From assembly GCA_021767645.1 (NCBI GenBank), contig JAASSY010000002.1, forward strand, positions 1-55,267: a stretch of 55,267 nt of DNA, read 5' to 3'. Shown piece after piece: positions 4,646 to 43,505 of this stretch; position 1 is the first letter of the stretch; each line of letters opens with the position of its first letter. Under the pieces are notes generated by a model that saw only the letters and a program-made list of their open reading frames with translations, was not told where the DNA came from and searched no databases. Origin of the DNA: Candidatus Parcubacteria bacterium (GTDB taxonomy: Bacteria > Patescibacteriota > Minisyncoccia > Phycocordibacterales > UBA918). Made by a program: the position numbers and the translations under genes.

Positions 4646-5562
4646 TTGTTACGTTTAAAGAGATAAAGAGCGATCCCAACCACCACCAGAATCAGACTCA
4701 CAATCAGCCAGAACATACCGCTTACGGCCTGACCTGGCAGTTCTACGTTCATGCCGTAGAGCGACGCCACAATAGTCGGAATGGTGAGGAGAATCGTCAA
4801 AAGCGTCAACGTTTTAATGGTGGTATTGAGGCTGCTGGTCATAATTGCCTCTGAAGCATTGCGGACGTTTTGGATGGTAACAAGCAGCTGCCGTGAGGAA
4901 TCAATCAACTGTTTGTTAGCGATGGTCAGGTCTTCCATCATTTCCACATCTTCATTGAAAAGTTGGATGTAATTTCCTTTCATAACCTGATCGAGCCAAG
5001 CATTTGTCGGAACCACCGCAGCAATAATGTCATTAAGTTCGTTTTCGTAGTTCACGAGTCGCTGGATTTCCCGCGGACCAATTCGCCGCAGCTTCACTCG
5101 GTCTCGGTGCACAGCGCGGCGTAAGCGGGTAAGTTCCCGGTCAAAGGAAGTGGTGAGTCGTTCCAACATTGTAATAAATAACTTGGTTTTTTGGGTGGTA
5201 ACAACAGTTTCAGGCTTATCTAGCAAACCACTCAGCTGGGGGACTTCGCGCAGTGCGACCGTGAGCACAAACGACTCCCCAACCGCAATCAACAGCGGTG
5301 CAGTTGTTCCTTCAGCGGCCTGGCCAGCGTCGTACGGATACCGAGTAAAAAAGTAATTCACTCCCCCACTCCGCTCAAACCGCGGTACTTCAAAAAAGTC
5401 CTGAGCGTCTTCAAGGACGGCTTCATCTAAGTTGTAGTCTTGCAGTAGCTGCCCTATCTCCTCTTCACTCGGAGCAGTCACATGCGTCCAAACACCCGTC
5501 CGTGGCGTAGCTAGTTCCTTGAGCTCACTGTCCTGAACGGTTTTAAAGTAGTGTGTAATCAT
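4636..5562 (-). CDS. corA: CorA-family magnesium/cobalt transporter
   Basis: C-terminal two TM helices with the signature YGMNV (GMN) motif. Length and cytoplasmic N-domain are typical. Confidence 0.85.
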   Translation of the reverse strand: MITHYFKTVQDSELKELATPRTGVWTHVTAPSEEEIGQLLQDYNLDEAVLEDAQDFFEVPRFERSGGVNYFFTRYPYDAGQAAEGTTAPLLIAVGESFVLTVALREVPQLSGLLDKPETVVTTQKTKLFITMLERLTTSFDRELTRLRRAVHRDRVKLRRIGPREIQRLVNYENELNDIIAAVVPTNAWLDQVMKGNYIQLFNEDVEMMEDLTIANKQLIDSSRQLLVTIQNVRNASEAIMTSSLNTTIKTLTLLTILLTIPTIVASLYGMNVELPGQAVSGMFWLIVSLILVVVGIALYLFKRNNWL

Positions 5563-5729
5563 CCCTCTAGTTTAGTGCAGGAACGCTAGCGCTGCAATTG
5601 ACAACGTACTCGCATTTTTTTACTAGTGATGGTATGATGTCGCGCGATATCAGTGTGAATCGCTGATTGTAATCGAGAAAGTAGAGTTGCAAGTAAAGCT
5701 TGCCACACTAAACAATGACGATCATTCCT

Positions 5730-5800
5730 CGGGGTGTAGCATAATGGTAGTGTACGCGGTTTGGGACCGTGTGGCCCGGGTTCGATTCCCGGCTCCCCGA
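5730..5800 (+). tRNA. tRNA-Pro (anticodon UGG)
   Basis: Hand-folded cloverleaf: acceptor CGGGGTG/CTCCCCG (one U-U mismatch), anticodon stem CGCGG/CCGTG, loop TTTGGGA (UGG, G37), T-arm CCGGG-TTCGATT-CCCGG, discriminator A. No encoded CCA. Confidence 0.85.
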
Positions 5801-6000
5801 CAAATCAAAAAGGTACCAAACAGAGATTTTTTTATTTGACTTGCTAGCGCGGATACTAGTTAGTTAGCGTAGTCTCATTTTTTGGCCATGTTAAAACATC
5901 CTCAGCGATGAGGGCTATTTCGACAAATGAATTGTTAGCCCTAAACCTAAGTAAAGGGACAACGAACAGCGGTCTGGTGTTTCCCGTGCAACCGTGATGT

Positions 6001-6396
6001 CTACACATTTTCAATCAGATTAACCGTAGCGTATGTTTCACGTGGTACAATTCTCACGCCAATCACATCGATTTGCCAGTTTCCTGTAAAACTTTGTTGC
6101 TGCACCCAAGTTTCGGCTGCCTGGCCTATTTTGTGCAATTTTCGCTGATGCACCTGCTCCTCAGGGCGCCAATACGCACCATTAAGAGCTTGTTCGAGCT
6201 TATTTATTGTTTCATATGAAACTGTTTTCACTTCGACAAAGTGAACCATATTTTCAATCTGGACAATAATATCGATCTCAGCAAAGCCAAGATGACAGTT
6301 GCGCTCCAGAACTTCCCAACCTGCATCAGCCAAAAACCTGGCCGCCACCGCTTCGCCTAATTGACCCGTCGAAATATTGTTAGTTTTGGCACGCAA
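6001..6396 (-). CDS. yraN: YraN-family (UPF0102) endonuclease-like protein
   Basis: GQLGEAVAARFL..GWEVLERNCHLGFAEIDIIV..VHFVEVKT matches the YraN core. Track ORF runs to 6537, but that extension crosses a 21-bp repeat, so a TTG start at 6396 is proposed. The start remains uncertain. Confidence 0.7.
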   Translation of the reverse strand: MRAKTNNISTGQLGEAVAARFLADAGWEVLERNCHLGFAEIDIIVQIENMVHFVEVKTVSYETINKLEQALNGAYWRPEEQVHQRKLHKIGQAAETWVQQQSFTGNWQIDVIGVRIVPRETYATVNLIENV

Positions 6397-6438
6397 TATA
6401 TTAATTTTAACACGCCCGGTTACACATGGAACCAGAAG

Positions 6439-6590
6439 TATATGTTTCACGTGGTACATTTGGTAACTTTGCACTTTACAACTGTATAAACCGCTAAATT
6501 TTTCGTCTTTTACTCTAAAAGACTGTCCTTTATCCACCTATCCCCGGTTTTATCCCCAGTTATACCCAGATGTACCACGTGAAACATATA
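6439..6590. repeat. perfect 21-bp inverted repeat pair TATATGTTTCACGTGGTACAT (6439-6459 / 6570-6590)
   Basis: Exact reverse complements read directly. An 18-bp third copy lies at 6032-6049 inside the yraN 3' end. Confidence 0.9.
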
Positions 6591-6669
6591 TTTAGGTTTC
6601 CCGTGCAACGTTTTGTCAGCTTTCCCTCCAGCTATGCTATAATTACACTCTAGCTAATAATAAAGTACT

Positions 6670-7145: not shown

Positions 7146-7180
7146 ACGTAAAACCACCGCCTCAGGCGGTGGTTTTACGT
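7146..7180 (+). terminator. rho-independent terminator after DoxX
   Basis: 16-bp perfect stem ACGTAAAACCACCGCC/GGCGGTGGTTTTACGT with loop TCA. The U-run is part of the stem end. Confidence 0.7.
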
Positions 7181-7238
7181 CATACCAGGTTTCTCGTGGA
7201 ACCTTTGCTATACTCTAGCGTAGGGAATTATCTGAACG

Positions 7239-7506
7239 ATGGCTACAAAAGTTTGCATCCGAAGGCTGTGCGAACGTCTACGAGTGGAGTGACCCCGCTG
7301 GTACCGTTTACCAATCACACTCTCATCAGGGTAAAGTGACGCTATTTGTGACCGATGGATCTATTACATTTAATTTTTCTGGCGTTACACGTGAAATACA
7401 GGCCGGTGAGCGGTTTGAGGTCCCCGTGAGTGAAGAGCATTCGTGGGTTGTAGGGGAGAAAGGCTGGATCGTGGCGGTCGGTGAAGAAATAGAGGGGGAC
7501 GCGTAG
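7239..7506 (+). pseudogene. small cupin-fold protein with apparent 1-nt frameshift in an A4 run
   Basis: Open frame 7219-7506 encodes YEWSDPAGTVYQSHSHQGKVTLFVTDG...GERFEVPVSEEHSW (cupin HxH and P..H motifs) but has no in-frame start. The ATG at 7239 is in another frame and stops after 17 codons. Removing one A from 7247-7250 gives MATKFASEGCANVYEW... Confidence 0.45.
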
Positions 7507-7594
7507 TTTTACGTGGAACTAATTTAAGAAAAAATACACTGACTTCAGCGACAGACACTAGAAAAGCCAGGGAAACCCGGTATTCTAGCACCTG

Positions 7595-7770
7595 TGCGGC
7601 CAGGGAGAATGTCCCCGCGAGTTCTAAGTATTTTGGTTCACTACGTTCCCAAAATACCAAGACTCCTGGACGGCGCCTCGTATCTTCAAGCCATAGGCAA
7701 GGGGCTTGAAGATATACTGCGGCGCTTCGATTCTCCACGAAAGAGCCTCAAGGCTCTTTCTCTGGTCCGC
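7595..7770 (-). ncRNA. candidate structured, tRNA-Gly-linked RNA element (about 176 nt)
   Basis: Minus strand begins GCGGACCA (the tRNA-Gly 5' acceptor GCGGCCA with 1 inserted nt). It contains three strong hairpins, including a 12-bp stem at 7681-7714, and ends in an exact tRNA-Gly 3' end copy. Not assignable to a known RNA family by eye. Confidence 0.3.
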
Positions 7771-7779
7771 AGCAGCATC

Positions 7780-7817
7780 AAAATAACCGCCGTTCCGTAT
7801 GGAACGGCGGTTATTTT
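7780..7817 (-). terminator. palindromic (bidirectional) terminator immediately downstream of tRNA-Gly
   Basis: 17-bp perfect stem AAAATAACCGCCGTTCC/GGAACGGCGGTTATTTT with loop GTAT and A/T runs on both sides. Confidence 0.7.
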
Positions 7818-7822
7818 GGCTG

Positions 7823-7893
7823 TGCGGCCAGGGAGAATCGAACTCCCGACTCGTGCTTGGCAAGCACGCATTATACCACTTAACCATGGCCGC
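7823..7893 (-). tRNA. tRNA-Gly (anticodon GCC)
   Basis: Cloverleaf: acceptor GCGGCCA/TGGCCGC, D-stem GTTA/TAAT, anticodon stem CGTGC/GCACG, loop TTGCCAA, T-arm GGGAG-TTCGATT-CTCCC, discriminator A. No CCA encoded. Confidence 0.9.
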
Positions 7894-7904
7894 GTATGGA
7901 ATTG

Positions 7905-8561
7905 TTACAACTCTTTTAAAGCTAACTGAAGCCACCTTTGTAACTTACGCTTTAAAACAGTGCTGCCGATTATAGTACTTCCTGTCGCATTATGCAATAT
8001 CTCAGTGTGGCCACTATGAAATTGCGTTTTACCAAACTGAGTGGGGGAGAGTTTTATTTTCTGCGACCACCAGCGCTGCTCAATCGTTTCTGACTGATTT
8101 TCGTACAATAACAACCAAAAACGCAGCTGTTTTCTCTCTACACCCAGGTAGTTACACGCGAAACGGATAAAAATACGGTGCAGTTGTGGGTCATTTGAGG
8201 TCAGCCGTATCTGAGAAGACTGTTTTAAATCTCCAGCCGCTTGATACACCATAAGGGCGGCCAGAAAGGCTGGATCGCGCTTATAGTGACGAAACTCAGT
8301 GATCGCCGCTGTCTCAGCTTCTTTGTACCGTTTATCACGCTCTGCCTGCTGCGCTTTTTGTACCAGGGCTATGCGGTTACGGTTAGCTTTAGCGGCTTTG
8401 AGCGTGTTGTCAGCTTTTACCTGCTTGGAGAACTTCTGATTGGCTAACCAGTTGCTCACCGTGCCTTTTGAAACTCCGCACAACTTAGCTATTTCGGAGT
8501 AGGAAAAACCACGTTTTCGATAATACGTTGCTAGTTCTAGCTTTTCTGGGTTATGAACCAT
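7905..8561 (-). CDS. HTH-domain protein with possible LAGLIDADG-like (homing-endonuclease-like) C-terminal domain
   Basis: N-terminal HTH (GFSYSEIAKLCGVSKGTVSNWL). The C-terminal half has AFLAALMVYQAAGDL followed by IRLTSNDPQLHRIFIRFACNYLGV and FWLLLY..., which resembles LAGLIDADG-fold layout. The second call is tentative. Confidence 0.6.
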   Translation of the reverse strand: MVHNPEKLELATYYRKRGFSYSEIAKLCGVSKGTVSNWLANQKFSKQVKADNTLKAAKANRNRIALVQKAQQAERDKRYKEAETAAITEFRHYKRDPAFLAALMVYQAAGDLKQSSQIRLTSNDPQLHRIFIRFACNYLGVERKQLRFWLLLYENQSETIEQRWWSQKIKLSPTQFGKTQFHSGHTEILHNATGSTIIGSTVLKRKLQRWLQLALKEL

Positions 8562-35725: not shown

Positions 35726-36157
35726 ATGAGTCTATCTATGCGATTTGAAGTGCCACAGTTTATTGAAATTGAAGACAAAATTTTTGGTCCGTTTACCTGG
35801 AAACAGTTTGTCTACCTCTGCGGCGGTATTGGTATTGCGGTTGTACTCTTTATCACCACTCCATTTATTGTCTTTCTCGTCTTGGGTATACCGCTCGCTG
35901 GGCTGGCAGCACTCTTAGCGTTTTATCCTATCAATAACCGACCATTTTCAGTCTTCCTGGAAGCTGTTTTTAACTTCTATACCAACACCACCAACTACCG
36001 CTGGCAGCGCACCCAGCAGGCTGTCTACAAAGCCAAGCAAACGACACCAGCCCCCACACCAGACGAAGACGCCCCTCCCCAAGTACCGAAAGACAGTAAC
36101 GGAATTAACTCGCTCGCTCGCAAACTAGAACTGAAAGCCATTCAACAAGAAAAATAA
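35726..36157 (+). CDS. PrgI-family (VirB3-like) small membrane protein
   Basis: FEVPQFIEIEDKIFGPFTWKQFVYLCGG followed by two TM helices, the hallmark N-terminus of PrgI-family proteins. Sits directly upstream of VirB4-type genes. Confidence 0.7.
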   Translation: MSLSMRFEVPQFIEIEDKIFGPFTWKQFVYLCGGIGIAVVLFITTPFIVFLVLGIPLAGLAALLAFYPINNRPFSVFLEAVFNFYTNTTNYRWQRTQQAVYKAKQTTPAPTPDEDAPPQVPKDSNGINSLARKLELKAIQQEK

Positions 36158-36841: not shown

Positions 36842-38653
36842 ATGGCGATCGGGGATTTATTTGGTGTTGGCAAAAAAAATGACACTCCAGAAGAGGAGCG
36901 GGTTTTAAGTGCGGACGAGTCGCTGATGACACTCGAGGACGTGATTGCCCCGTCGGGTGTCTCGATTACACCACGCACCATCAACATTAGCGGCACGTAT
37001 GCTCGCACACTGTTTGTTATTTCCTACCCTAAATACCTCAATGACGGCTGGCTCGAACCCATCCTCAACCTCGAAAAGGAGATGGACATCTCTATCACCG
37101 TCCACCCAGTCGATACTGCTGAGTCGCTGAAGAAATTTCAAAAAAAAGTGGCTGAAGTAGAGAGCCAGATCGCTACCCGAGCCGAGCGCGGTCTGGTGCG
37201 CGACCCACAACTAGAGGCTGCCCACCGCAACCTCGAAGACCTGCGCGATAAGCTACAACAGGCAGAAGAAAAATTATTCGACGTCGGGCTCTACATCACG
37301 ATCTACGGCGACAGCGAAGTAGCCCTCAATAAAACAGAAGGGGAGTTGAAGAACATTCTCGACGCTCGCCTGGTCTACCTCAAACCAGCCACCTTTGAGC
37401 AGGAGAAGGGGATTAAGAGTGTACTGCCGTTTGTTGATGACCAACTCATGGTGCACAGCAAGTTTAACTCCTCGCCCCTCTCGAGCTTTTTCCCGTTTAC
37501 CAGTTTCGACCTGACCTCAGATACTGGTATCCTCTACGGCATCAACCGCCATAACTCTAGCCTGGTATTGTTTGACCGGTTTGAACTAACCAACTACAAC
37601 TCAGTCACCTTTGCTACTTCAGGTGCTGGTAAGTCGTACACGACGAAGTTAGAAATCCTCCGCTCTCTCATGTTTGGAACTGAAGTGATTGTTATTGACC
37701 CCGAACGTGAGTACGAGTACTTAGCCGAAGCAACCGGTGGACGGTTTTTCAATATCTCACTCTCGTCCAGTCACCACATCAATCCGTTTGACCTACCAAA
37801 GCCACAAGAGGACGAAAACCCAGAAGATGTTCTGCGTTCACACGTCATCGAGCTTATCGGCCTATTCCGTCTTATGCTCGGTGGTCTCTCACCAGAAGAG
37901 GAGACGCTCATCGACCTGGCTATTAACGAAACCTACGCCCTTAAAGATATTACCGGTAGCGCTGACTTCTCGGAGTTAGAAGCTCCACTACTATCTGACT
38001 TTGAAATGGTACTTGCCGGCATGGAAGGTAGTGCTTCTCTTATTTCGCGTCTACAGAAGTACACTTCTGGTACCTGGAGCGGTTTTATGAACCAGCCAAC
38101 GAACGTCGACATTAACCAAAAATTTGTTGTCTTCTCGTTGCGTGATATGGAAGACGAGCTGAAGACGGTGGCGATGTACATCATCACCAACCACATCTGG
38201 GGAGCAATCCGCCGCCGCCTAGCCAAGCGCTTACTGGTTATTGACGAGGCGTGGTGGATGATGAAAAGTGAAGATACTGCCTCGTTCCTGTTTATGCTCG
38301 CCAAGCGAGGGCGTAAGTACTACCTAGGACTTTCCACTATTACCCAAGACGTAGAGGACTTCCTACGCTCGCCGTACGGCGTACCAATGATCACGAACTC
38401 CAGTCTCCAGCTCTTAATGAAGCAGTCACCGACCGCCATCGACACTATCCAAAGCACCTTCAACCTGACTGATGAAGAAAAGTTTTTGTTGCTTGAGAGT
38501 AATGTCGGGGAAGGGATATTCTTTGCCGGACTAAAACACGTTGCCATTCGGGTCATTGCTTCGTACACTGAAGACCAGATTATCACTTCGGACCCGTCGC
38601 AATTACTCGCTATTAGGGAGGCCAAAGAAGAGCTCAAGGCCAGCCGCAGCTAA
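36842..38653 (+). CDS. virB4: VirB4/TrbE/PrgJ-family type IV secretion ATPase
   Basis: Walker A FATSGAGKSYTTK, Walker B LLVIDEAWWMM, STITQD sensor region, 603 aa. Confidence 0.85.
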   Translation: MAIGDLFGVGKKNDTPEEERVLSADESLMTLEDVIAPSGVSITPRTINISGTYARTLFVISYPKYLNDGWLEPILNLEKEMDISITVHPVDTAESLKKFQKKVAEVESQIATRAERGLVRDPQLEAAHRNLEDLRDKLQQAEEKLFDVGLYITIYGDSEVALNKTEGELKNILDARLVYLKPATFEQEKGIKSVLPFVDDQLMVHSKFNSSPLSSFFPFTSFDLTSDTGILYGINRHNSSLVLFDRFELTNYNSVTFATSGAGKSYTTKLEILRSLMFGTEVIVIDPEREYEYLAEATGGRFFNISLSSSHHINPFDLPKPQEDENPEDVLRSHVIELIGLFRLMLGGLSPEEETLIDLAINETYALKDITGSADFSELEAPLLSDFEMVLAGMEGSASLISRLQKYTSGTWSGFMNQPTNVDINQKFVVFSLRDMEDELKTVAMYIITNHIWGAIRRRLAKRLLVIDEAWWMMKSEDTASFLFMLAKRGRKYYLGLSTITQDVEDFLRSPYGVPMITNSSLQLLMKQSPTAIDTIQSTFNLTDEEKFLLLESNVGEGIFFAGLKHVAIRVIASYTEDQIITSDPSQLLAIREAKEELKASRS

Positions 38654-40380: not shown

Positions 40381-41241
40381 ATGCGATTATTCATACTTAT
40401 TGTTGCTTGCACATTCCTCCTGGGAGCCAGCTTGTCCTTGGCGCAAGTTGAAGGTGATATCGCTAATCAACCAGTCATCCCCGGCCAAACCAGCGCTTCG
40501 CCGGCCGCACAAGCAGATATCAATCGTATAAACGCTGGCGCAAAAGGTGCTTTCGTTCCCCTTGTCGGCATCCCCTTCGTAGAAGATAGTGAAGTCCGGA
40601 CCGCCGGCCTCGCCGCCTACGTCAATAGTCTCTACACTGCGGTAATTGTGATTGCAGCGGTGTTAGCGGTACTCCGGATTGTAATTGCCGGCGTGCAGTA
40701 CATGTTGTCTGACATTGTTACCACTAAAGCCCAAGCCAAGAAGAACATTCGTAACTCACTGCTGGGACTTATCTTAGTAGTAGCGGCGGTACTAGTCCTA
40801 GAAACGATCAACCCACAGCTCACCAACTTGTCGGTGTTAAATCTGCTGGGGTTGAGTGGGGATTTGCGTGATACACCAATTCGGGTGGATACTGGAGGCT
40901 CACCACCCACATACACAGGCCCATCTTCATGCGGACGAGACGAGAGACTTATTCAAAATATAACTAACAACCAAATTGTTCGGGAATGTATTTCGATTTC
41001 CGAAGACACTAATTCTAACATTCCTAATGAGGGAGATCTTGGAGTAGGGGAGGTTTTAGAACAACAAGATGTCGATATTCCATGCGGCAACCCCAATGGA
41101 TGTAACGCAGCAAATGGGTATGACAACCTGAACGGTGTGAGTAGCGCTTCCGCTACATGTGACGAGCTCAGTTCTGGAACTGGACAATTTAACCAGCTTA
41201 GTGTCACACAAGGAATATGTACTTGGGTTACCCAAGAATAA
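40381..41241 (+). CDS. VirB2/TrbC-type T4SS pilin-like protein with Cys-rich C-terminal extension (paralog 1)
   Basis: Signal peptide (SLSLAQ), VPLVGIPFV, then two hydrophobic helices separated by a basic loop (YVNSLYTAVIVIAAVLAVLRIVIAGVQYMLSD..KAQAKKNIRNSLLGLILVVAAVLVLETINPQL). A C-terminal domain of about 120 aa with 6 Cys follows. Confidence 0.65.
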   Translation: MRLFILIVACTFLLGASLSLAQVEGDIANQPVIPGQTSASPAAQADINRINAGAKGAFVPLVGIPFVEDSEVRTAGLAAYVNSLYTAVIVIAAVLAVLRIVIAGVQYMLSDIVTTKAQAKKNIRNSLLGLILVVAAVLVLETINPQLTNLSVLNLLGLSGDLRDTPIRVDTGGSPPTYTGPSSCGRDERLIQNITNNQIVRECISISEDTNSNIPNEGDLGVGEVLEQQDVDIPCGNPNGCNAANGYDNLNGVSSASATCDELSSGTGQFNQLSVTQGICTWVTQE

Positions 41242-41323
41242 CCTATTTTATACCAGTTTGCCCACATAAAGTCTTGGTGAATTTATATATAATTAATTCG
41301 CTATTAACTGGTATAATTAACCC

Positions 41324-42502
41324 ATGAATCGTACCACTCTAATTAGTGCAGCTATTATTATCACCCTCATCATCGCAGCGGTCTGGGTGTACCTCCTCTT
41401 CTTCGGCACCCCGAATAACACCAATGAAGTGTTCACCAACCTCGGCTTCACCCCAACCACACAACCCACCACGGTGGTACCTAGCGGAAACCAAACTGGC
41501 AGCGCGCCCATCGGCGACTTAGTCGACACCAACAGCCAGGCCCTCAACCAACTAACCACCCGTCCCGTTGCCGGCTTTACCACCTACACCGCCACCTCTG
41601 GCCCAATGGCACGCTACGTCGAACGAGGTACCGGCCACGTGTTTGACCTCAACCTCACTTCCGGTCGAGAAAACCGAGTATCACCCACCACCATCCCCCA
41701 AGTCAGCAGGGTAGTCTTTAGTGACGACCCAGATGTCTTTGCCCTACAACAAAACCAGACCTACCAAAAACCAGTCACCCTAGCGACCCTCGCAGATGGT
41801 CAACTACTCACCAACAACGTCAGCGCCAACGGTGAAAACCTCGACTTTAGAGGCGGCGCTCTCCGCTACACCACTCTCGCCGGTGGCGATACAGTGGGAT
41901 ACAGCGTGAACACCAACACCACCGAACAAACTGAGCTGTTTTCATTTGCATTTGCTGAGCTCGATGTTTGGTGGGGCGACGACACTAACCCAACCTACCT
42001 AGCCACTAAACCAGCTAGCAACTTAGCGACCTACGTCTACCAGGCAACAGACAACTCCTACGAGCGCGAGCTGCCTGCTCGTACCGGGCTGGTTGGGTTT
42101 AGCGAGGACGGAAACCACATTATTACTTACGCTGATAACGGACTACTTATATCCCGCTCTATCGATAGCGGGACTGAGGAATCGTTTGAACTACCGATCG
42201 TCGCCCTAGGAGAGAAATGTATTTTTGATAATTTAGAAGCAACTTATTTATGGTGTGCCGCTCCGTTTGAACCCTTGGCTGCCAATCATCTCAACAGCTG
42301 GTATAAGGGAGTGAAGCAGAGTAATGACGCTTTGTGGCTTGTCAACCTCAACACCCAAACCGCTGAGCTAGTAGCTAATCCTGAAGACATCGCTGGTCGA
42401 CCGCTCGACATCGTCAAGCCAGCACTTGGCACCTCTAACGACACGTTGTTTTTTATCGACCGCACCGACCACACACTTTGGAGCCTAAGTCTTGTTGACT
42501 AG
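41324..42502 (+). CDS. hypothetical membrane-anchored beta-rich protein (T4SS-like operon)
   Basis: N-terminal TM (ISAAIIITLIIAAVWVYLLFF). Repetitive beta-strand-like pattern, possibly a propeller. No family recognised. Confidence 0.55.
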   Translation: MNRTTLISAAIIITLIIAAVWVYLLFFGTPNNTNEVFTNLGFTPTTQPTTVVPSGNQTGSAPIGDLVDTNSQALNQLTTRPVAGFTTYTATSGPMARYVERGTGHVFDLNLTSGRENRVSPTTIPQVSRVVFSDDPDVFALQQNQTYQKPVTLATLADGQLLTNNVSANGENLDFRGGALRYTTLAGGDTVGYSVNTNTTEQTELFSFAFAELDVWWGDDTNPTYLATKPASNLATYVYQATDNSYERELPARTGLVGFSEDGNHIITYADNGLLISRSIDSGTEESFELPIVALGEKCIFDNLEATYLWCAAPFEPLAANHLNSWYKGVKQSNDALWLVNLNTQTAELVANPEDIAGRPLDIVKPALGTSNDTLFFIDRTDHTLWSLSLVD

Positions 42503-42548
42503 TGGGGAACAGGTCAAGTAAATATAAAGACTATAGTACAATATGTGT

Positions 42549-43505
42549 ATGCGACGTATTGTAGCTATACCAATACTCTTGACCGTCCTAACACCACTCA
42601 GTGTGCTCGCCCAAGACTTTGTACCATTGGTAGGTATCCCGTTCGTGGACGACGGTGAAATTGGTGGTAGAGACGGCGCCGGCCTCGCTGCCTACGTCAA
42701 CAGTCTCTACACTGCGGTAATCGTGATTGCCGCGGTGTTAGCAGTACTACGGATTGTCATTGCTGGGGTGCAGTACATGTTGTCTGATATTGTCACGACC
42801 AAAGCCCAAGCTAAGAAGAATATTCGCAACTCTTTGTTGGGGCTAGTTTTAGTGGTAGCGGCAGTGTTGGTGCTGGAGACGATTAACCCGCAGCTGACAA
42901 ACTTGTCAGTCCTCAACCTACCTGGGTTGAGTGGGCAGTTGAATAATACGCCGATTAGAGTGGATACGAACAGTGGGGGTGGAGGGAGGAACATGCGGGC
43001 GGAAGAAAGCGCTGACTGCTCTGCGGCTGGCAACAGACCAATAGTTTACAACGGCCGTAACCAAAATTTTGTCTGCTGCGAGTCAGCTGACACCCACGAG
43101 CGCTGTTCATCTGTGTTTCCAAACAACACCGACCAAACAGTTGTGGCCACCAAAGACTTCTCTGGCAACGGAGCTGGTGAGACAGCGGATGCGTTTGCCG
43201 AACAGTTTGAACAAGACAACCCCAACACCAGCTGCTCAGTCGAGCAAAGAGGTTCTCGCCGAGACACATCACAACGTGTAACATGCACCAGCTCCGGATC
43301 AGACAATGCACAAACAGTCAACTATCGCATCAACGACCCCGCCATGCCAGACCTGGGTATAACAGAACCAGGGGCCAACCATAATGAGCCTATTACTGTA
43401 GTAGAAGTAATCGAATCAGAAAACATGGTGACTGTGATAGACGCCGCCGGGAGACAATTTGATATTGGCTGTCAAAATATTCAACCACGCCCAAATGGTT
43501 GTTAG
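42549..43505 (+). CDS. VirB2/TrbC-type T4SS pilin-like protein with Cys-rich C-terminal extension (paralog 2)
   Basis: Same pilin core as 40381..41241 (84 of 86 core residues identical). Unrelated C-terminal domain of about 170 aa with 8 Cys. Confidence 0.65.
   Translation: MRRIVAIPILLTVLTPLSVLAQDFVPLVGIPFVDDGEIGGRDGAGLAAYVNSLYTAVIVIAAVLAVLRIVIAGVQYMLSDIVTTKAQAKKNIRNSLLGLVLVVAAVLVLETINPQLTNLSVLNLPGLSGQLNNTPIRVDTNSGGGGRNMRAEESADCSAAGNRPIVYNGRNQNFVCCESADTHERCSSVFPNNTDQTVVATKDFSGNGAGETADAFAEQFEQDNPNTSCSVEQRGSRRDTSQRVTCTSSGSDNAQTVNYRINDPAMPDLGITEPGANHNEPITVVEVIESENMVTVIDAAGRQFDIGCQNIQPRPNGC

Follow-up and report, generated by a model that had tools for sequence, protein, structure and literature searches.

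The locus and its two pilin genes

The window analysed here, a stretch of 55,267 nt whose numbering is used throughout, is one contig of a 605-kb, 43-contig genome, a metagenome assembly that is 94% complete and has a gene content of the Patescibacteria/Parcubacteria type. At the 3' end of a single-strand operon that encodes a type IV secretion system (T4SS), delimited from the open reading frame (ORF) list and from Pfam matches, lie two genes for pilins, here called A and B. They flank one non-pilin gene and form a pilin array that lies 1.7 kb 3' of virB4 and 1.5 kb from dnaA (Table 1). The two proteins share a core that is almost unchanged at the protein level and far diverged at synonymous sites, and each continues into a cysteine-rich C-terminal domain, the head, with no detectable similarity to that of the other. 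By family, hairpin and synteny, both genes are paralogous VirB2-like pilins of a Patescibacteria chromosomal T4SS.

Pilin A starts 1 nt past the stop of the upstream gene and is laid out as signal peptide, 35-aa N-terminal linker, hairpin core and head A. Pilin B has an alternative start at 42549 that gives the 318 aa of the database copy P0003; a database look-up for the exact P0001 sequence returned no record.

Table 1. Positions of the pilin genes, their parts and the associated T4SS genes in the window.
Feature	Positions	Strand	Basis
PrgI/VirB3-like gene	35726..36157	+	Pfam PF12666 PrgI, E 1.7e-9, 38.5 bits (cut-off 27)
VirB4-type ATPase	36842..38653	+	Pfam P-loop_TraG E 1.2e-25, AAA_10, DUF87
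Pilin A gene, P0001, 286 aa	40381..41241	+	ORF, translation, PF18895
Pilin A tract homologous to B, residues 58-171, FVPLVG...PIRVDT	40552..40893	+	BLASTP, tblastn
86-codon core of pilin A (two hydrophobic helices and KAQAKK loop)	40603..40860	+	Pairwise comparison, AlphaFold2
Head A, 115 aa, 6 Cys, mixed beta/alpha	40894..41238	+	AlphaFold2, ortholog P0004
392-aa gene between the pilins	41324..42502	+	ORF; N-terminal transmembrane segment
Pilin B gene, P0002, 320 aa	42543..43505	+	ORF, translation, PF18895
Pilin B tract homologous to A, residues 26-142	42618..42968	+	BLASTP, tblastn
86-codon core of pilin B	42678..42935	+	Pairwise comparison, AlphaFold2
Head B, 178 aa, 8 Cys	42969..43502	+	HMMER, AlphaFold2
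Module B3, YRINDP...GC-x5-P-x3-GC, C-terminal	43323..43502	+	HMMER

The shared core is conserved as protein and diverged as DNA

The core copies differ at 43/258 nt (16.7%; 30 transitions and 13 transversions), with 37 of the differences at third codon positions, five at first and one at second, and at only 2/86 residues (I/V and L/P). A sequence-only reading of this DNA had counted roughly 40 nucleotide differences; its coordinates for the two ORFs and their cores, and the two replacements, hold. Nei-Gojobori counts give 40 synonymous and three non-synonymous differences, with proportions of differing synonymous and non-synonymous sites (pS and pN) of 0.574 and 0.016, corrected distances dS 1.09 and dN 0.016, and a dN/dS ratio (omega) of 0.015; 26/48 fourfold-degenerate sites differ. 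For the hairpin alone (66 codons) the counts are 31 synonymous and one non-synonymous (dS 1.16, dN 0.007). Judged by its DNA the copy is thus not recent, and purifying selection on the core is very strong, as that reading had argued.

Homology between A and B is longer than the 86-codon core and covers ~115 codons, from FVPLVG, the mature N-terminus of B, to PIRVDT, past which BLASTP detects no similarity between the two proteins. Within this tract 2/86 residues are changed in the core, against 8/28 in the linkers, which also have an indel of 3 aa (Fisher 1.8e-4). In a blastn comparison of the genes the repeat is 291 bp at 82.1% identity; its longest exact run is 20 nt, which is the chance expectation (shuffle mean 21.3), and no near-identical DNA tract with sharp borders was found in this pair. 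No third copy of the core turned up elsewhere in the 605-kb genome by blastn.

The Pro/Ala/Gln-rich linker of pilin A (35 residues, 40447-40551, plus strand) runs from the predicted signal-peptide cleavage site to FVPLVG. Pilin B lacks it, so the mature N-termini of the two proteins differ. Antisense ORFs lie over both cores on the minus strand (40632-40916, 94 aa; 42707-43033, 108 aa), and their sequences differ between the copies. The differences fall on synonymous changes of the sense strand, which leaves the plus-strand frame as the conserved one; we rejected them as genes and regard them as by-products of composition.

Both proteins match T4SS_pilin (PF18895) above its gathering cut-off of 26.6 bits (pilin A, E 7.3e-9, 36.0 bits; pilin B, E 8.9e-9, 35.8 bits), and a six-frame search of the genome scored them at 38.5 and 38.9 bits. 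AlphaFold2 models, built with 38-sequence alignments, have two long helices in each core (residues 69-109 and 116-143 of A, 48-80 and 87-114 of B), joined in both by the basic loop SDIVTTKAQAKKN. The suggestion that the cores are T4SS-type pilin hairpins is borne out by this family match and these helices. The hydrophobic N-terminal leaders of both pilins end in AQ; the signal peptide was judged from the sequence, without a predictor.

The heads show no detectable homology, and head modules are exchanged between pilins

That the C-terminal domains are Cys-rich and unrelated had been proposed from the letters, and the comparison agrees, with sizes and cysteine counts as in Table 1: BLASTP finds nothing, and hhalign, run on the C-terminal part of head A against module B2 of head B (see below), returns a probability of 0.07%. 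We had tried that pairing for a look, helix-Cys ... GG ... hairpin-Cys, that the two share by eye, and we rejected it on this score; the same look is seen by eye at the C-terminal ends of most pilins of the genus.

Head A is a conserved unit. Its model has strands and one helix, with a predicted local distance difference test score (pLDDT) of about 70-90 over residues 170-286, and in its ortholog P0004 (39% identity over 224 aa) cysteines align to all head A cysteines. P0004 (L049) is a single pilin and sits at the other position in its genome, that of B, next to yidC, so heads or genes move between positions.

Three modules or more make up head B, namely B1 (residues ~150-192), B2 (~205-250) and B3 (261-320). 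Its model is confident in two parts only, residues 205-255 (pLDDT 76-90) and 286-309 (77-80). A word-indexed search with head B alone recovered only its own protein, and its partners come from an exhaustive HMMER search over 1.84 billion representatives. P0054 and P0056 match B1 and B2 and not the rest of the head; B3, the last 60 residues, is matched alone by P0055, P0057, P0061 and P0062. In P0060, B3 is 35% identical over 60 aa (E 2e-10) and the core, of a different pilin subfamily, 32%; B3 is also present in P0006 and P0033, as in P0062. On these matches head B is a mosaic, with head modules shuffled among pilin cores, in line with the earlier idea of swappable heads. P0061, a metagenome protein of 87 aa, consists of B3 on its own and could be a fragment or a free-standing module. 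We found no partial head copies (silent cassettes) elsewhere in the genome.

Neither head matches a Pfam family, and B3 gives nothing meaningful in a profile search of the PDB or against Pfam; a match to an S-layer protein at E 0.02 is probably due to chance. Structure prediction followed by Foldseek, which had been put forward as a check on the heads, gave no fold match: with both AlphaFold2 models against the PDB, nothing fell below E 0.2, and matches to histidine kinases were rejected as look-alikes of the type 'helical hairpin plus alpha/beta domain'. Cysteine counts are even in nearly all heads and the genome has two DsbA-like genes, which fits disulfide-stabilised extracytoplasmic heads.

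The sequence-only reading had taken an appended domain to be unusual for a pilin, which has to be corrected for this subfamily. The core was found in 335/401 genomes sampled across the order, and among the matches listed it lies in ORFs of at least 200 aa in 120/150, with lengths up to 907 aa; appended heads are, to judge from these ORFs, the norm in this Patescibacteria pilin subfamily. Heads in relatives are often predicted peptidoglycan (cell-wall) hydrolases, with SLT (38.7 and 53.3 bits) and 3D (27.8 bits) above the Pfam cut-offs and CHAP below its cut-off. These peptidoglycan cutters at the same position, together with Peptidase_M15_3, give some footing to the idea that the heads are cargo. 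The pilin core would then carry them or mark them for secretion, and they would reach the host as released or delivered effectors or toxins instead of being displayed as adhesins. We consider this improbable for heads A and B, which match no catalytic family or motif and are joined to their cores with no cleavage site or processing signal that we could identify.

In relatives the core is homogenised by gene conversion

The nearest relative is JGI contig L032, with 91.7% protein identity in VirB4 and 93.5% in DnaA. L032 and genome G022 have the same layout as the window (pilin, ~390-aa gene, pilin, yidC), and G021 and G032 have tandem pilin pairs. Within each of these pairs the cores share exact DNA (345 nt in G022, 326 in G021, 364 in G032 and 350 in L032), in tracts that reach from at or near the predicted signal-peptide cleavage site into the linker past helix 2; the heads are unrelated in all four pairs despite the DNA-identical cores. 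The homologous tract of A and B is similar in extent to these identical tracts of 326-364 nt.

Eighteen pairs were counted, with the four close ones and 13 further pairs from other families of the order, each scored in its best 86-codon window. Core DNA is 99-100% identical in 11/18 paralog pairs. Among the 13 further pairs, four are at 100% and three at 99%, with G241 and G226 at 98% and G146 at 96%. The pair of G095 (L033, G095:C4:12500-24500) lies on opposite strands ~10 kb apart and is 99% identical, with two synonymous differences in 86 codons; conversion can therefore act without a tandem arrangement. Two pairs are intermediate in the hairpin: G113 (dS 0.33; 12 synonymous and one non-synonymous difference) and G278 (dS 0.70; 23 synonymous and four non-synonymous). 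In the neighbouring pair of G050 (L040, G050:C4:5300-9500) the hairpin has diverged in protein too (dS 1.04, dN 0.25), which is 35x the protein divergence of our pair at a similar synonymous distance, a comparison that saturation leaves only suggestive.

The clearest case comes from genus g48. The first pilins of G070 and G177 (G070_1 and G177_1) are orthologous over their cores and their SLT (lytic transglycosylase) heads, with 50.6% identity over 322 aa, and the core of each is 99-100% identical in DNA to that of the second pilin of its own genome versus ~52% in protein to that of the other genome. With whole-length orthology and genome-specific cores, the two-gene state predates the split of G070 and G177, and the cores have been homogenised since. 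Compared in this way, the g48 pilins show gene conversion (concerted evolution) confined to the hairpin module, and not repeated fresh duplication. In the genome studied here the cores group by genome (98% to each other versus at most 69% to any other), but head orthology to G022 or L032 is undetectable. In G009, of the same genus, contigs C11 (3-287) and C31 (1-162) end inside a pilin core. These breaks are as expected if DNA-identical cores broke the assembly, and pairs may be under-counted in fragmented metagenome assemblies.

Set among relatives whose within-genome cores are normally identical in DNA, our pair is an outlier, and one copy or core could have been imported by recombination from a sister lineage whose core has the same protein and diverged codons, or the contig could be a chimera of two co-occurring sister strains, so that the synonymous divergence would have arisen between genomes and not between paralogs of one genome; the head A ortholog at position B (genes or heads do move) and the 43-contig metagenome source would suit either. 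We give these possibilities little credence. A distance of 2 kb separates the two genes on a single 55-kb contig, and in the database a single 136-kb contig carries both products; among 5.8 billion proteins no donor-like core exceeds 64% identity; the intermediate pairs G113 and G278 fit gradual decay within a genome; and an import would still require strong purifying selection on the hairpin.

The direct repeats of our pair flank a conserved T4SS gene, and their identity runs are now at most 20 nt, as if synonymous changes had been selected to suppress direct-repeat recombination that would delete the 392-aa gene. This fits poorly and is very hard to credit: the run lengths are those of chance (20 observed, shuffle mean 21.3), and G022 and L032 have the same layout with perfectly identical repeats of 345-350 nt. 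Selected spacing of the synonymous changes was rejected on the same run-length shuffles.

A probable escape from conversion, with selection on the hairpin

Our pair is best taken as the extreme of a graded series in which cores decay once homogenisation has ended, and its signature of purifying selection is the cleanest. Of the sequence-only reading, which spoke of an old duplication under selection, the selection stands; what it missed is that in this family the core is as a rule converted, with 99-100% DNA identity in relatives. The best explanation, which we hold to be probable, is a set of pilin twins in which conversion lapsed, selection kept the hairpin and one scaffold carries two heads. 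Twin pilins of the order would normally keep the hairpin identical by gene conversion, with the heads free to diverge, shuffle and be replaced. In this genome, conversion would have stopped long ago; synonymous sites would have drifted to near saturation, purifying selection would have held the hairpin protein, and the linkers inside the old tract would have changed. The linkers changed much more than the hairpin, which argues that time has passed and that the hairpin in particular was under selection. Identity over roughly 25 nt is needed for RecA-type exchange; at 20 nt, the longest run is too short for efficient exchange, so the pair is now out of conversion's reach.

Each pilin would start with a Sec signal peptide and go on to a hydrophobic hairpin of two helices and a basic loop, with a head of the disulfide type following at the C-terminus, outside the membrane. 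Both would have to suit one VirB4-driven assembly machine and identical subunit contacts, and one scaffold, a pilus or a membrane stalk, would present two different heads for contact with the surface of the host cell. One hypothesis is that the copies constrain each other beyond ordinary purifying selection.

The main functional rival has the proteins as membrane-anchored surface proteins and not filament subunits, with the hairpin as a two-helix anchor or a handle for the T4SS; no pilus would be built, and the heads would act at the cell surface, in binding or, in relatives, in wall remodelling. Patescibacteria T4SS derive from the monoderm MPF_FATA class, which is without pili, according to the excerpts available from a recent survey (Quinonero-Coronel et al. 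2025, Microb Genom, PMC12102498). A helical filament of the VirB2 type would be crowded by a head on each subunit, given heads of 115-178 aa here and ORFs that reach about 900 aa in relatives, and the short, head-less PF18895 open frames on contigs C26 and C10 of this genome (120-131 aa) could be the real filament subunits. It is, however, the head-bearing pilins and not the short ones that are fixed beside virB4 across the order, and identical hairpins, kept by conversion in relatives and by selection here, are more easily explained by subunit packing than by an anchor. On balance we regard an anchor role as rather unlikely, though it deserves to be taken seriously.

Several points weigh against our preferred account of lapsed conversion, selection on the hairpin and one scaffold with two heads. 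(i) Its functional half, i.e. polymerisation, co-assembly, surface display and the binding or activity of the heads, is something that we infer. 'Adhesin', as a term for heads A and B, is a guess because neither has a fold or family match. (ii) Pfam TrbC/VirB2 (PF04956) does not match either pilin at E<=0.01 (pilins of relatives reach only 15-24 bits, with a cut-off of 27.9), and a profile of 16 cores run against PDB chains found no VirB2-type pilin and nothing at E<=10; in place of a TrbC/VirB2 or solved-pilin match, the VirB2-like assignment comes from PF18895, the hairpin architecture and the gene neighbourhood. (iii) Neighbouring genes compared with those of G022, L049 and L032 are all synonymously saturated (pS 0.73-0.83), so the time since the last conversion cannot be calibrated. 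Ordinary purifying selection at an unchanging omega of about 0.015, given a very long period, could still be the whole explanation; dS between L032 and our genome would then have to be about 13. (iv) Synonymous differences are uneven along the core: pS rises from 0.27 (codons 1-25) through 0.59 (codons 25-50) to ~0.8 (codons 50-86), as it might if the 5' end of the core had later undergone partial conversion, but the signal is weak (permutation p 0.09). (v) Comparison with G022 and with L032 detects no position-wise orthology of the heads, those of the genus having diverged beyond recognition. (vi) VKOR was not found in the genome.

The operon and other pilins of the genome

The genes of the operon run in the order PrgI, a TraC-like protein of 207 aa, VirB4, a membrane protein of 225 aa, a secreted protein of 327 aa, pilin A, the 392-aa protein and pilin B. 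Beyond pilin B, on the opposite strand, lie yidC, rnpA and rpmH, then dnaA and dnaN. The PrgI and VirB4 genes are on the same strand as the pilins and tightly spaced; the synteny is kept in relatives, with the same gene order in G022, L032 and L049. The 392-aa inter-pilin protein has no Pfam family. Its gene stands beside a pilin in nearly all relatives across the order and is a conserved component of the T4SS locus; the protein ends in a C-terminal motif like LYFINKNDNTLWMYE. A scan of the locus for promoters and terminators was uninformative.

The six-frame search found nine PF18895 genes in the whole genome. Contig C22 has two of them, at 7153-8145 and 5513-6634 (both plus strand; loci L005 and L007), of a different core type with a CxGxxCNFC motif; these cores are not homogenised, with roughly 35% identity by eye. 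One of the C22 pilins is fused to Peptidase_M15_3 (33 bits, above the cut-off), and the other has an SLT-like 'ES...GAMQIN' motif by eye, with no Pfam match.

Comparison with known systems

Canonical VirB2/TrbC/TraA pro-pilins are about 100-125 aa long and have no extra domain. The pilins described here share with that family (PF04956; T-pilus, F-pilus, R388, pKM101) the signal peptide, the two hydrophobic helices, the short basic loop and the position of the gene beside virB3 and virB4 homologues; they differ in their length of 286 and 320 aa with heads, in having no PF04956 or solved-pilin match, and in belonging to a monoderm-type system. In type IV pilus pilins the single N-terminal helix is conserved, and the globular domain at the C-terminus is variable and held by disulfide bonds; a prepilin peptidase processes them, and PilB/PilT ATPases are used. 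Both designs follow the same logic, in which a conserved hydrophobic element serves polymerisation and a Cys-bonded outer domain varies, but family, fold and machine are unrelated, and the prepilin peptidase and PilB/PilT features are not present here.

Nystedt and colleagues reportedly described amplified trwL and trwJ paralogs in the Trw T4SS of Bartonella. To the extent that the excerpts of the survey cover it, that system resembles ours in having multiple paralogs of pilus components (trwL VirB2, trwJ VirB5) in one T4SS locus, with concerted evolution and diversifying selection, and in a function read as adhesion to host surfaces with variable specificity. It differs in being diderm and in having small pilins without appended domains, whereas here conversion is confined to the hairpin and the variable part is a separate head.

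VirB2-like pilin arrays in Patescibacteria chromosomal T4SS are already published. According to the excerpts of the survey (PMC12102498), these T4SS come from the monoderm MPF_FATA class, usually have no relaxase and in Paceibacteria lie near dnaA, and their pilin arrays are highly variable (mean identity 25%, maximum 54%). Pilin paralogs are proposed there to adapt to different hosts, and the arrays are compared with the VirB2 paralogs of Bartonella and Anaplasma, Nystedt et al. 2008 (Mol Biol Evol 25:287) being cited for 'diversifying selection and concerted evolution' in Bartonella Trw. Also cited are the essential pilin array of Ca. Southlakia epibionticum ML1 and what is given as the sole experimental T4SS analysis in Patescibacteria, in which the genes were essential for the epibiotic lifestyle. 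An array is defined there as at least two PF18895/VirB2-like genes, in tandem or with one non-pilin gene between them, near virB4 and, in Paceibacteria, also near dnaA, which is what the window contains, and the published arrays share with it both PF18895 and a locus beside dnaA, dnaN, rnpA and rpmH. Gene conversion and an identical core module go unmentioned in the same excerpts, as do hydrolase heads and domains appended at the C-terminus. The locus type is thus known, and what this pair adds is twin cores whose identity survives at the protein level only.

Implications

Patescibacteria make up a large share of bacterial diversity and live attached to other microbes. Their pilins, as seen here, would be two-part proteins: the hairpin has to match among all co-resident copies, and the outer domain can vary and be exchanged. 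A shared module of this kind escapes surveys in which pilin arrays are scored by the identity of whole proteins. The sameness would normally be kept by conversion, and by selection where conversion has lapsed, a kind of evidence that conversion alone cannot give. Selection without conversion points to co-assembly of subunits with different heads, which makes these proteins candidates for the host-contact surface. A more tentative thought, which we lean against and still find quite possible, is that identity of the hairpin is itself selected for co-polymerisation, kept by conversion in most lineages and by purifying selection alone once the DNA, as here, has become too diverged for recombination, so as to make a modular rack with swappable heads. 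If so, an invariant scaffold would carry binding modules or cell-wall hydrolases aimed at the envelope of the host.

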